Of a stretch of 64,000 bases of DNA, positions 43,943 to 61,043 are shown piece by piece. The position numbers were made by a program, and so were the translations under genes. How positions within the stretch are numbered: position 1 is the first letter of the stretch; the number at the start of each line of letters is the position of its first letter. Source of the DNA: Octopus vulgaris (lineage: Eukaryota); assembly GCA_951406725.2 (NCBI GenBank), contig OX597840.1, forward strand, positions 38,254,001 through 38,318,000, in the 5' to 3' direction. The notes below the pieces were generated by a model. It made no database searches and had not been told where the DNA came from. It worked only from the letters and a program-made list of their open reading frames with translations.

Positions 43943-44009
<67 letters not shown>

Positions 44010-44594
44010 TAGCATTAAAGACCCGTCGTTGCCGGGTCGTAGTGATAGTGCATGTATATATGTGTACATATTACATGTACATCTATGTATATACATCTAC
44101 ACATAAAATACAAAATACAAAGTTATATCTTGATATCGCTTGTGATAACAATACTCAAAATATATAACAGGCTGGAATTGTAGGCCCGTCTCTTGTAATT
44201 TCGATCAATTGGATCTTGTCCTCCCTCTTGTATAGAAGTGTGGCTACAATCCGACGGCTGCACCGAAATTCATTTTGGGACTTTCTTCTATCGAAGACAT
44301 TTTAACAAAAATACATCCGTGTAAACGGTGAAAATATTGTCAATTTCCCCAAACAGGGACACAATTCAATTTTTAAACAATAACCAAAGCTCCTTCTCCA
44401 ATAGGGGTGGGGGTGGGGGGTTACGGTTTACAATTATTTAACAAATGCAACACAACAACGCTTCCCTTACGAGGAACCAACAAACGTGACAACAATAGTT
44501 AAACAGAAATAATAATAACAACAAACCTTACGGTAAACCAAAAAGCAGTACTCTGTTGAAGCTATAGGCCTTTATGGATCAGAAATAAACTAAC

Positions 44595-44610
44595 AGCGGT
44601 ACTCAGTAGA
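44595..44610. repeat. Target site / TSD AGCGGTACTCAGTAGA (also 49886-49901, 55191-55205, 60466-60481)
   Basis: Exact 16-mer at both array ends and junction 1; 15-mer preceded by a 12-bp variant duplicate at junction 2. Confidence 0.92.
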
Positions 44611-44845
44611 TATTTCTTTATTAAGATTATGAAAATCGATACACAGAAGGACAAATACAGGACATACATACAAAAACATTTAAGAGATTCGATTAAAAAT
44701 TATGTTTAAATTCGTTATAAAATAATAACCTTTGCATAACTAGTATAGCAAACAACAGTAGGTGAACTTGTAGTCTCACTGGAGCTTTTACACCCCGGCA
44801 ATTTATGAGGCCCTGCAGCTTCCACTTCCTCTCTCTTCTCCATGG

Positions 44846-58400: not shown

Positions 58401-58829
58401 AAGGACAGTGTTAAAGTCCCCTACTAGGATTACTGTTTTCGACGTCGCTAAAAAGGGCTCCAGGTTCCGGAAAAAACCCGTCTGTCTACCCTCGTTCGGG
58501 GCGTAGACAGCTACCAACCTGAAGGACTGTTTACTTACGTGAGTCACATCCAGGACAACCAGCCTGCCTTCTGGGTCCAGAAAGACAGTACTTACCTGCA
58601 AGTCCAAGCTCTTCCTGATGAAGACTGCCACGCCTCTGCCTCTTCCTCGGCTAGGAGAAATAAATTTCTCGAAACCATTTAGAAGAGGCGAGAACGCTTG
58701 GGTCTCGCTCATCTTGGACTCGGTTGCAATAGCAATATCTACACTGTGTGTCGTGAGGTCGTTCAGGAAACAAATTTGTTTCCGTTTCGACCCCATTCCA
58801 CGTACATTTATACAGCCCAGCTTAGCCAT
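55440..58829 (-). CDS. Intact ORF2 polyprotein, 1129 aa: APE endonuclease, reverse transcriptase, C-terminal CCHC zinc finger
   Basis: APE motifs INVRG, VYAPN, GDFN, YLDRIF, SDH; GPGYWKLN; RT motifs KSPGLDG, YRPITLLN, LDQSKAFDRV, VRQGCPLSP, YADD; CPRC...HAFVHC. Confidence 0.95.
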   Translation of the reverse strand: MAKLGCINVRGMGSKRKQICFLNDLTTHSVDIAIATESKMSETQAFSPLLNGFEKFISPSRGRGRGVAVFIRKSLDLQVSTVFLDPEGRLVVLDVTHVSKQSFRLVAVYAPNEGRQTGFFRNLEPFLATSKTVILVGDFNTVLEAHIDSVGSTNRKGNPSLKGLLESFDLVDRYRLDEPSVPQWTWSNNDGSHRSYLDRIFIKKRDKDTFSCPQFHIVPYSDHKFVTCEVQLDKCHRQGPGYWKLNKAILNCEDFRTRIKVLVQRALCGTIINNRWWHALKRAIRLESVRFSNQLRIDRASLEGDLVKNLDEAMEAGSASGVLAARTVLYRHLNSKYEGCRVRAKLRAGKREGINVAGWARRVESKRGNRASIKSLTDEQGQKIYGQEEMQKFLHQHFARVFGGGGSLDRGRALKDFLAGGPRLAGREVECCEGAITPAEIKEILAGCAGEKSPGLDGLPYEFYQSMPDLFGGILAGVYTNWQQNGRIPSSVSRGVVTLIQKDPSKGDNISNYRPITLLNVELKILAKVLAKRLTVVVEKLVGRAQTCAIPGRSIQDNLHLIRYTLDRVGKLAGKGGVMVHLDQSKAFDRVDHGYLATVLEATGLGPEFRGWISAMYSGIKSTVQINGYLTEPFSIKCSVRQGCPLSPLLYVLALEPLLRKLERLGSNSDEIGGGRTVTAYADDVTLIVSKEAQLPCVEEVIRGYEAVAGAKVNKDKSVGLRLGTWRSKPISSSVVGHWTDGPVKLLGVWFGPDSQTEKNWSEVTSRVEAIVRTWSGRSLSLKGRAEVVQMFIASVITYRLTVVPCPDSWLNKLERILFRFLWKGGKPLVRRSVCCQEPLKGGLGMPWLMMRRHALRLRHLWHHLEGDKVWSPLAEGFFPRPASLVNFKPGYIKRWKLTPWQKECRQALTLIHKTGKAGCGNTTSVFYRGLVEVKNDDVLGGALGFDEDQLANLFKKTFRSGYLDNFQRSLAWQCYRNALPVREKLSRHGVQVPPTCPRCGLDDETVQHAFVHCRKLSDLISYAEHVLSHLGRVQLSAESMIKMIPPTGLSKEGEACFHCTVAVVKECMWRTRMEGAAIGSFISGPGLLTYFRYHLKSKMGLEKRTLPRGVYEKRWKEVERKVGVRNPA

Positions 58830-58857
58830 TGTGGGTGAGAGAAGGAAATGTATATAC

Positions 58858-60281
58858 TCACGGTTGCGAGAGGGAGCATGACAGTTTCAATCTGCCTGCT
58901 TCCCTTTCTTCCGTTGCTGCAGGGTTCTTGACCGGCGTTGCCACTGGGCTCTGGGTGGGTGTGGTTGCCGGGGTTATTGCCAGTTTACCCTCCATTACCT
59001 CCTTGGTCACATCTCTTATTAGACGGTTCCTCAGGTGTTCCTGAAGAACCTCCTCCTTCCACTCGTTCTCCCCTACCTTCGCGAAACGAGCGGTCGCCTT
59101 CCCATCTGAGGTTCTACTATACAGTGGAAATCTCGCGAGTTTGCAGCATTTGTAAACTTTTTCATTTTTTTCATCAAAGGCTATAATTCTTTCGTTTTTC
59201 GATATGCACTTTTTGATGTCTTGTTTTATGGGGAGGGGTTTGGCAAACTGTTTTCCAATGAAAACAGTGCCATGGGGGTAGGGTTGGGGGATTTGTTTAA
59301 TGTGTGTGTCTGCTGTGTTTGTTGTTTTTTTCCTTGTTTGGGGAGGGGAGTCCTGGGTGTTCTCTTTTTTCTTTTGTGTGTGACTTGTGTGTAGTCCATT
59401 GGTTCTTTTGAATCCGTTTTCGTTTCCGTATTTGTCTTCTTCATTTGGTTGTTCTTGCTTGTTTCCTCCCCTTCAGTGACAGGTACACTTTGAGGAGGCG
59501 TTTCTTCTGTTCTTTTTTTCTTAATGCAGTTGGACCGGACGTGACCCTTCTCTCCACACTTGAAGCATCTGGGTCTACGTCCCTCCACCGACACTCTCAT
59601 GGACGTGCCGTCCTCATTAAAAATTCTGTCAGGCAGGCTCTCCAAGATCTTGTTCTCTGCCTGTACGAGGAGTTCCAAGGTCTGACCCTTCCAGCGTACC
59701 ACTTCCTTCCTTCTCATTTGCAGAATTGAAATTTCCCGCTCCATGTTGTGTAGTACCGCCGCTGCCACCCACATGATGTCGTACCCTCTGGGTATGTCAT
59801 CTACCACTAACTTTGCAGTTCGTTTCCCCATATACGAGGGTAACAACATGATGTCGTCGCTTTTTAAGGTTAACGACGACACCTCCTTCGCCACTTCTGC
59901 CGTGTCGAAGTGCACCTCTACCGTAGCACTACGTGCGCCTCTCGCGATGTGACGAATTCTGTCCCACACCGGGGACAGGCACTTCTCAACAATTTCGTTT
60001 TTCGCGTCCATAATCTTTTTTTCCTTAAAGCTATACACTTTATAAGTTACAATCCTTTCCTTGATTTCTTGCACTTTCGCTTGCGGCGGTACCAGCCTTA
60101 TCTCTCCTCCTTCCACCTTTACAAGATTCCTGTATTCATACAGCTGTTCGATCTTGAATTCGACCTCTATCATAGCGCCGCCCACCGCGGCCGAGAATGA
60201 CTGTTTGGTTACTGGGTTTTCCATGGTTTCACCTTTTCCCATCACGGGAAAATCGTCCTTCGACGTTAAGTCGAACTCCAT
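58858..60281 (-). pseudogene. ORF1 with -1 frameshift in T6 run (59365-59370)
   Basis: CCHC knuckle retained; frame lost at the same homopolymer as in copy 2. Confidence 0.82.
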
Positions 60282-61043
60282 CACCTCAAAGGTAGCAAAT
60301 TTCAAATAATACAAAATTTTCTGCCCCGTAGGGCGAAAATCACCGTTTCACAACGGGCACTGTTCAAAGCAGTTGGTACAAACAATAAATTCACAACTTC
60401 GACTCTCTTAAATGGGAGCAGCAATTTTCTCACAACGCAAACAGAAAAATAACGCAATTAACAGAAGCGGTACTCAGTAGAATGCTTAATGCTAGCTAAT
60501 TAGCAGATAATCTAATGTAAAAGCCTTGCACACCTCCATCTGGACAATTCCATTTCTGCACTTAAATTTTATTTTTTTATTTATTCCCATTCATGTGAAA
60601 CCACTGATTCAAGTTCAAGTCATTGATGCAATTGTATACCAATTGCTATTTTTACTTTTGTTATGTTACGATAATATTATACTTTAGTTTGATTTTAATT
60701 ATTACTTACGACATATAATTCAATTGTTATTATTATTTTTATTGTTAAAGTGAAAGTATCTGACATAAAATACAGAAATGTTTTTGTTTCACTTTTAACA
60801 CGTAATACTGAAATAGTGAAGAAGATATGATATTGCTATGGGCTCGCTCTAGGCAAGAAGTTGAACATGTTTTTGCCCTTGAAACTACATGGACCCTAAG
60901 TAAGGCATGTGTAAAATTTGAATGAAATTGGTTGTGTAGTTTTCAAGTTTTAGGTAAACACACAGACAGACAGACAGATAGACAGACACACATTCTCAGT
61001 TTTATGTATATAAAGATATTTATATATATATATATATATATAT

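Follow-up and report, generated by a model that had tools for sequence, protein, structure and literature searches.

A 64,000-nt stretch of the Octopus vulgaris genome (assembly GCA_951406725.2, contig OX597840.1, positions 38,254,001 to 38,318,000; the whole stretch is hereafter the window) contains three tandem long interspersed nuclear elements (LINEs) of the Tx1 type, which are nested in a non-autonomous Helitron. It appears that these LINEs belong to a young, promoter-parasitic L1/Tx1-type lineage whose insertions probably take place at start sites of RNA polymerase II (Pol II), with repeated return to the target type of the donor. Insertion occurs in the sense orientation by target priming, at a fixed offset from a TATA box in about half of the targets. 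A pattern for the LINE 3′ end, without flanking sequence, was searched in the genome (2.8 Gb, 227 contigs) and gave 57 matches at 35 independent loci (L numbers below; C numbers are contigs). The flanks of all 57 were read: the Helitron accounts for 23 ends at 12 loci, and the other 34 ends, at 23 loci, lie elsewhere.

Position of the insertions relative to TATA boxes

The copies carry the signature of target-primed insertion, namely target-site duplications (9-24 bp at most full-length insertions), fixed 3′ ends, and 5′-truncated copies. The off-site copies were read at both ends first, and TATA boxes were seen ~31 nt upstream of the duplication. The discovery set kept 13 targets; L031, L091, and L105 were left out for want of a duplication, L086 and L092 because their upstream end is undefined, and so were repeats of one target. 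A held-out set was collected by means of a motif in the 5′ untranslated region (5′ UTR), which has 181 matches, 100 of them listed. It comprised 40 newly fetched loci: 10 independent targets with a duplication-defined nick, 13 repeats of counted families, and 17 loci that were dropped because the fetched DNA held no 3′ end or duplication. The interval from −33 to −28 relative to the nick was fixed before curation.

A strict TATAWA motif starts within this interval in 7/13 discovery targets (p = 9e-6) and in 4/10 held-out targets (p = 0.0035), against a background of 0.069. With a relaxed TATA motif, the counts are 9/13 and 5/10 (background 0.12). When the 23 targets are pooled, the interval holds 11 strict boxes, compared with 0-1 in each of 15 other 6-nt windows between −99 and −4, and all 11 lie at an offset of either −31 or −29. 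Thus, 11/23 targets show a fixed distance from the core promoter of the kind described for TRE5 and Ty3. Three more heads in a zinc-finger gene cluster, two of which are near-identical, have the same TATA spacing as the counted targets. An automatic duplication finder with the relaxed motif gave 10/15 and 4/10 (background 0.12) and misplaced L091, L105, L208, and L212, so the curated table was used. The usual spacing from TATA box to +1 is −31/−30, and we infer that the insertion positions correspond to Pol II start sites.

A target copy probably carried by the element

The Helitron target is a 15-bp sequence that is duplicated around the LINEs. Among filled Helitrons, this 15-mer has the consensus sequence in 12/12 cases on the 5′ side and is variant in 3/12 on the 3′ side, and the 15-mer is variant in 9/23 empty hosts. 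The 5′ duplication copy follows the element rather than the locus and is therefore probably templated by the RNA of the element. Displaced duplications were also found elsewhere: the L102 head carries an L097-family duplication and is located inside a different RTE promoter, the L213 head carries an RTE-promoter duplication within unrelated flanks, and the L219 and L230 heads retain remnants of an L208-type duplication. In addition, a 13-nt variant part-copy of the target in the window (55178-55190), which is read as a tag carried in by the element, also occurs in the L069 head (C5) and in L033 (two heads and one downstream copy, of one 3′-end subtype). This shared rare variant may point to templating by 3′ read-through.

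The endonuclease domain is identical (0/240 amino acids differing) among four Helitron-site copies, L037, and L091. For the two closest head types, a role of endonuclease differences in target choice was rejected, the domains being identical; more distant sub-lineages differ at 2-26 of the 240 residues, and such differences may contribute there. On the LINE tree, target class is clustered (13 changes versus 23.7 after shuffling, 0/200 shuffles as low), and TATA targets are present on both main branches.

Proposed mechanism and its weighing

The LINE is integrated in sense by target-primed reverse transcription, and the place would be a Pol II start site or its immediate neighbourhood. What attracts the particle would be the pre-initiation complex (TBP/TFIID) or the DNA exposed at the site; tethering to TBP/TFIID itself is put forward tentatively, at slightly less than even chances. 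The borrowed upstream promoter would then transcribe the duplication together with the LINE, yielding an RNA that starts with the target sequence of the donor. The end of the cDNA, or the RNA-borne copy (and perhaps a 3′ read-through), could pair with a matching nicked overhang, and full-length integration would succeed best at like targets. Since such pairing would favour complete integration at like sites, sub-lineages would keep to one target, and since every insertion re-creates the target, tandem arrays could grow, as in the 1-6 units at the Helitron and the at least 10 at a site on C9. The complete scheme is offered as a possibility somewhat short of even: the LINE would dock on the pre-initiation complex, take over the promoter by insertion at +1, and retain the opening bases of the donor transcript as a heritable address, so that targets switch without any change of endonuclease. 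If insertion at a fixed distance from TATA boxes is confirmed, it would provide one explanation for the frequent target switching among Tx1 families and would hint at a natural way of promoter-precise insertion guided by RNA ends. It may also be that other transposon-targeting Tx1 families hit the promoters of their transposons likewise.

Several observations weigh against insertion at start sites guided in this way. A strict TATA box is absent from −33 to −28 in 12/23 targets, and the nicks were placed by visual inspection of the duplications. With regard to the Helitron, the short host variant, which accounts for 10/12 filled loci including that in the window, lacks a TATA box, while the long-host consensus has the degenerate TATGTAAT, and TATATAAT is found in one filled copy only; if the Helitron is scored as TATA-less, the pooled count becomes 10/23. 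Three RTE-promoter targets are possibly homologous, which gives a conservative count of ~8/21. The clustering on the tree is inflated by near-copies within the lineage. Finally, the major long host subfamily has none of the 57 LINE ends despite a target with a single mismatch, which RNA pairing alone does not explain. For this contrast with the TATA-less short host, candidate reasons are an internal promoter in the captured LINE head described below, age, and the sequence just upstream of the nick.

The best-placed alternative is a passive preference, by which a weakly specific APE endonuclease nicks pyrimidine-rich DNA exposed at active promoters without contacting TBP/TFIID. The half of the targets without a TATA box agrees with it, as do the nick sites, which mainly begin with CTT, CTA, or CAC (17/25), and other promoter-like motifs, read by eye, at the TATA-less sites L037 and L230. 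On the other hand, the −31/−29 offset of the 11 strict cases is tighter than a nucleosome-free region, although a melted bubble at +1 would be equally precise. An RNA-borne tag would still cover the fidelity of lineages, and this alternative differs from the proposed mechanism in the tethering step only. We regard it as rather unlikely, yet the first to be kept in mind.

Targets outside the Helitron

The other targets can be grouped as follows.

RTE promoters: tandem promoter monomers of ~520 bp, upstream of RTE-type endonuclease frames, which we take to be RTE from a sequence motif.
Hammerhead-bearing repeat: a minimal hammerhead follows the nick by ~25 nt (RF00163, 32.2 bits with a gathering score of 34, E = 1.2e-4); presumably Penelope-like.
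C2H2 zinc-finger gene promoters: L121, L233, and L235 on C27, upstream of zinc-finger frames.
Unique TATA sites: L036, L039, L084, L201, L219, and the C9 array.
Two-copy TATA site: L208/L216.
Heads of other Tx1 elements: L038, L086, L092, and L095/96, in relatives with 32-77% ORF1 identity.
Sites without an evident promoter: L034, L047, L103, L212, L214, and L217.

One type of RTE promoter monomer is filled in 5/61 copies, and 16 tandem copies of a TATA-bearing RTE promoter monomer, spaced by ~520 bp, were seen at C5:94289202-94297119. The hammerhead match, whose score is below the gathering cut-off, is present at 1/8 loci scanned; it is of the minimal type I and lies at L204:686-730 (minus strand), in a repeat with a TATA box and immediately downstream of a site that was hit more than once. 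L200, L211, L226, L227, and L229 may be more diverged relatives.

Within a C2H2 zinc-finger cluster at 22.8-26.2 Mb of C27 (L121, L233-L236, L269-L271), at least eight Tx1 heads occupy related promoter-like sites, three of which are tied to zinc-finger frames. If these sites are promoters as they appear to be, a mobile element acts directly on the promoters of an expanded zinc-finger cluster, where the lineage lands repeatedly. The array on C9 (59203979-59253346) follows a TATA-like site, numbers at least 10 units, and runs into an N stretch. Two irregular copies were also seen: L034 is a 78-bp insertion with a duplication of >70 bp, and in L084 an internal 107-bp piece is joined to the last 95 bp.

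The LINE array in the window

Self-comparison of the window revealed a tandem repeat with a period of ~5.29 kb from 44595 to 60481, which was resolved into three head-to-tail LINE units on the minus strand, with the 15-bp sequence between and flanking them.

44595-44609, minus strand: target duplication, downstream host-derived copy, 15 bp; nick at 44609/44610.
44610-49885, minus strand: LINE unit 1; ORF1 (48263-49699) intact, 478 amino acids, with a zinc knuckle; no poly(A) tail.
49886-49900, minus strand: target copy at the junction of units 1 and 2, 15 bp.
49901-55177, minus strand: LINE unit 2; ORF2 broken exactly as in unit 1, ORF1 frameshifted.
55178-55204, minus strand: compound junction of units 2 and 3, consisting of a target copy (55191-55204) and the 13-nt variant part-copy (55178-55190).
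55205-60465, minus strand: LINE unit 3; ORF2 (55440-58829) intact, 1129 amino acids, with APE, reverse transcriptase (RT), and zf-RVT domains.
60317-60339, minus strand: 5′-UTR stem-loop with a UACG loop, common to 181 Tx1 heads in the genome.
60466-60480, minus strand: target duplication, upstream copy, 15 bp.

The duplication measures 15 bp, or 16 bp when one shared A is counted. In unit 1, ORF2 is split by a 1-nt loss near 47003, and in unit 3, ORF1 (59226-60281) is frameshifted after 351 amino acids; thus, an unbroken ORF2 exists in unit 3 only and an unbroken 478-amino-acid ORF1 in unit 1 only. Between units 1 and 2 there are 13 differences, and between unit 3 and either of them ~198. The central 2 kb (~46200-48220 and equivalents) is nearly identical across the three units, with both sides several percent apart, and this pattern suggests that the units are mosaics formed by template switching or gene conversion.

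ORF2 contains the Pfam domains PF03372, PF00078, and PF13966, and the zinc knuckle of ORF1 (PF00098) is a weak match, just over the cut-off (E of 2-3e-4). The closest solved structure to ORF2 is human L1 ORF2p (E = 1.7e-67), with R2 at E = 2.5e-25. An ORF2 with APE, RT, and a C-terminal zinc domain that is nearer to L1 than to R2, together with an ORF1 zinc knuckle, places the element in the L1/Tx1 group. The Tx1 label is more provisional and follows from the domain layout, the absence of poly(A), and sequence motifs; searches for named homologues returned no useful match and no named Tx1 reference such as Tx1L, Keno, Kibi, or Koshi. The UACG-loop stem-loop is kept across Tx1 families with an ORF1 identity of only 40-50%. 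A two-sided change was seen in 1/11 of its pairs, but this covariation is uninformative, because the search motif itself selected for the stem-loop. The whole 5′ UTR folds no better than shuffled sequences (z = −0.07).

The host Helitron and its captured LINE head

The host is a multicopy non-autonomous Helitron, with a 5′ TC, a 3′ hairpin followed by CTAG, and insertion between A and T without duplication. It consists of the following parts.

60481-61016, minus strand: Helitron 5′ part, starting with TC after A; a short microsatellite lies near the end.
44160-44609, minus strand: 5′ end captured from an older Tx1-type LINE, with a 5′ UTR from 44609 and the ORF1 ATG at 44300.
44009-44160, minus strand: Helitron 3′ part, ending in a hairpin and CTAG before T; the inner boundary is approximate.
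44020-44038, minus strand: subterminal GC hairpin, resembling the 3′ ends of Helitrons that code for a Rep-helicase in the same genome.

In the window, A precedes TC at 61017/61016, CTAG is followed by T at 44009/44008, and the GC hairpin has a folding z of −2.3. Among the fetched loci, the TC start is present in 46/66 distinct 5′ ends and CTAG before T in 54/67 distinct 3′ ends, and 1188 3′ ends of the window-Helitron type were counted in the genome. Complete empty copies measure ~1.05-1.28 kb, and contigs of runs X1 and X2, from two studies, join 44594 directly to 60466, which is the empty site. Exact matches to the target plus right flank number 29, of which 21 are empty and 8 filled. The preliminary description had rebuilt an empty Helitron with canonical ends and placed three LINEs at one internal site between them; both proposals proved right, the latter by self-comparison and junction reading, and its expectation that the two halves occur joined as a multicopy empty element is borne out by the 21 empty matches.

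Rep-helicase loci were sampled and their 3′ ends compared: a related hairpin with CTAG before T was present at 4/5 loci, and no exact partner was found among them. Many Rep-helicase frames of 1500-1740 amino acids have identical scores, which suggests recently active autonomous Helitron families.

The same description had treated the target as Helitron sequence, a point that has to be corrected. Two filled hosts run from the target into sequence like ORF1 of the LINE (tblastn, E = 4.7e-14 and 2e-6), and a profile from 12 ORF1 pieces matches 30/30 long hosts and 0/4 short hosts. The host in the window is a deletion form, in which ~410 bp of ORF1 are missing at 44253/44252 relative to long host copies. 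From this ORF1 similarity and the alignment of UTR and ATG in the hosts, it follows that an older Tx1 LINE contributed its 5′ end to the Helitron, and that the young LINE inserts at the start of this piece; comparison of the hosts thus identifies the site as a captured 5′ UTR and ORF1 start and not as Helitron sequence proper. A second, degenerate partial target copy, resembling an older tag, lies ~50 nt downstream within the captured head (44545-44609). No small-RNA gene reached the Rfam gathering score at the seven loci scanned, where the matches were microsatellite look-alikes.

The captured head brings in the possibility of Zepp-like self-targeting, in which the element would recognise Tx1 5′ heads and hit the Helitron only through the one it captured. 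The origin of the Helitron site from an old Tx1 head agrees with it, as do L038, L086, L092, and L095/96, which end directly at heads of relatives, and the commonness of tandem arrays. However, it leaves the RTE promoters, the hammerhead repeat, the zinc-finger promoters, and the unique TATA sites uncovered, and a Tx1 head is itself a start site if the lineage inserts at Pol II start sites as proposed. Self-targeting is accordingly judged improbable.

Repeated insertion into the Helitron

Filled loci hold 1-6 units per Helitron and fall in two host subfamilies, with an occupancy of 10/45 short and 2/29 intermediate hosts (difference not significant, p = 0.11). None of the 57 LINE 3′ ends lies in the major long host subfamily (~1500 first-look candidates), whose one-mismatch target differs just upstream of the nick. 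The sub-lineage with the window-type 5′ head adjoins the 15-bp Helitron target, at the same base, in 23/23 heads. The earlier statement that all LINE copies sit at one site thus holds for this sub-lineage and fails for its relatives, and the flank tabulation likewise shows 12 loci hit at one Helitron base next to 23/35 with other flanks. The Helitron-site share of 12/35 loci exceeds the 20% rule applied to target specificity in Tx1 families (PMC4494074), whereas confinement to the site fails for the whole lineage that shares the endonuclease.

These figures bear on a sequence-specific endonuclease that would recognise the 16-bp Helitron site as a dispersed safe haven. The 23/23 heads and the occupancy of short and intermediate hosts speak for such an enzyme, and the difference just upstream of the nick in the unfilled long subfamily indicates that local sequence may matter. 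Nevertheless, copies with an identical endonuclease domain lie at the unrelated sites L037 and L091, the 15-mer has a mismatch at three filled targets, and 23/35 loci lie elsewhere, which together make this explanation distinctly unlikely. The safe-haven role that had been proposed for the Helitron has to be given up as well, since relatives are also found at C2H2 zinc-finger gene promoters.

Survivor bias would mean loose insertion, after which only copies behind a promoter stay recognisable or found lineages. L031, L034, and L091, among nine solo copies, and L103, from outside that set, are 5′-truncated or rearranged and lack a TATA context, as this would predict. Daughters, some with broken open reading frames, nevertheless stand at base-precise TATA offsets, and selection of donors cannot place daughters; little credence is therefore given to it.

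Both Helitron termini are intact in the window, so that rolling-circle copying of the Helitron-LINE composite, which had been suggested, would be conceivable. The host halves of filled loci are 2.5-5.2% apart, about as much as empty ones (11/12 loci with both halves scored), and no closer to one another (minimum 2.5%) than to empty copies. LINE ends at many filled loci are only 0-0.3% apart. On the host tree, the filled state requires 9 changes versus 9.7 after shuffling, with 175/500 shuffles as low (the bootstrap not being fully settled). Since filled hosts are diverged and scattered in the tree while the LINEs are near-identical, the insertions are independent: sequence comparison demonstrates that 12 Helitron copies were hit separately. 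The same composite was not recovered at several outer sites, and with two host subfamilies and 1-6 units per locus, the notion that all 12 loci are copies of one composite can practically be dropped.

Other features of the window

A 628-bp inverted repeat (94.9% identity; 61003-61621 and 61985-62611) begins at the Helitron 5′ end and may be a fold-back element or a local inversion. In addition, three tandem copies of a unit of ~184 bp, 88% alike, lie at 39542-40092.

Comparison with known systems

Several Tx1 families are known to reside in transposons, such as Tx1L in Tx1D (piggyBac), Tx1-Mar in Mariner-N4_AMi, and Tx1-9_AMi in Harbinger, and the targets of Tx1-8_Crp and Tx1-4_AMi are long terminal repeat (LTR) elements (PMC4494074). 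The octopus lineage resembles them as an APE-RT LINE that has entered a multicopy transposon many times at the same position, with tandem insertions that sandwich the duplication, and transcription from flanking sequence has been proposed for those families too (PMC4494074). The main text of that report mentions neither a Helitron as target nor a rule based on TATA boxes or start sites (PMC4494074). In the octopus, the site is a captured LINE head, and the lineage also occupies unrelated promoters, including those of host genes. A repeat annotation of octopus describes recently active L1-Tx1 families, and the terms target and promoter are absent from it (PMC13282606). In the open-licence literature, no Helitron-targeting Tx1 element was found, nor any non-LTR element that inserts at a constant spacing from TATA boxes of Pol II promoters.

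Position-specific integration at Pol III genes via TFIIIB is already known for TRE5-A, the L1-type NLTR-A, and Ty3, whose position is likewise set relative to a promoter; the binding of TBP, Brf1, and Bdp1 by TRE5-A ORF1p is a precedent for tethering of a LINE to a TBP-containing complex (PMC5911963). Their targets, however, are tRNA and 5S genes, and TRE5 inserts 40-54 bp upstream in the opposite orientation, whereas the targets here look like Pol II TATA promoters that are hit at about +1 in sense (PMC5911963). A loose preference for Pol II start regions is also known, from Mu, the P element, Tf1, MLV, and piggyBac, which share the start-site enrichment and the exploitation of a permissive site (PMC7337890). 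Unlike the octopus LINEs, these elements are DNA transposons, retroviruses, or LTR elements, their insertion peaks span tens to hundreds of bases, and they are neither target-primed nor provided with an RNA-borne target copy (PMC7337890).

Head-to-tail arrays are shared with HeT-A/TAHRE and Zepp; the promoter sequence that drives HeT-A lies upstream of the 5′ end of the element, and Zepp nests in existing copies (PMC5537684, PMC8226300). Those arrays are telomeric or centromeric, while the arrays described here are dispersed, lie at promoter sites, and are split by target duplications.

R1 and R2 are co-transcribed with their ribosomal DNA target, and their integration becomes more precise when the RNA ends contain target sequence. 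They have one fixed, endonuclease-defined target, in contrast to the many switchable targets served by one endonuclease here. Their co-transcription with the target has also been noted elsewhere (PMC4494074). Taken alone, the Helitron-resident target would be a further case of a known kind; what would be new is the start-site rule combined with an RNA-borne memory of the target.

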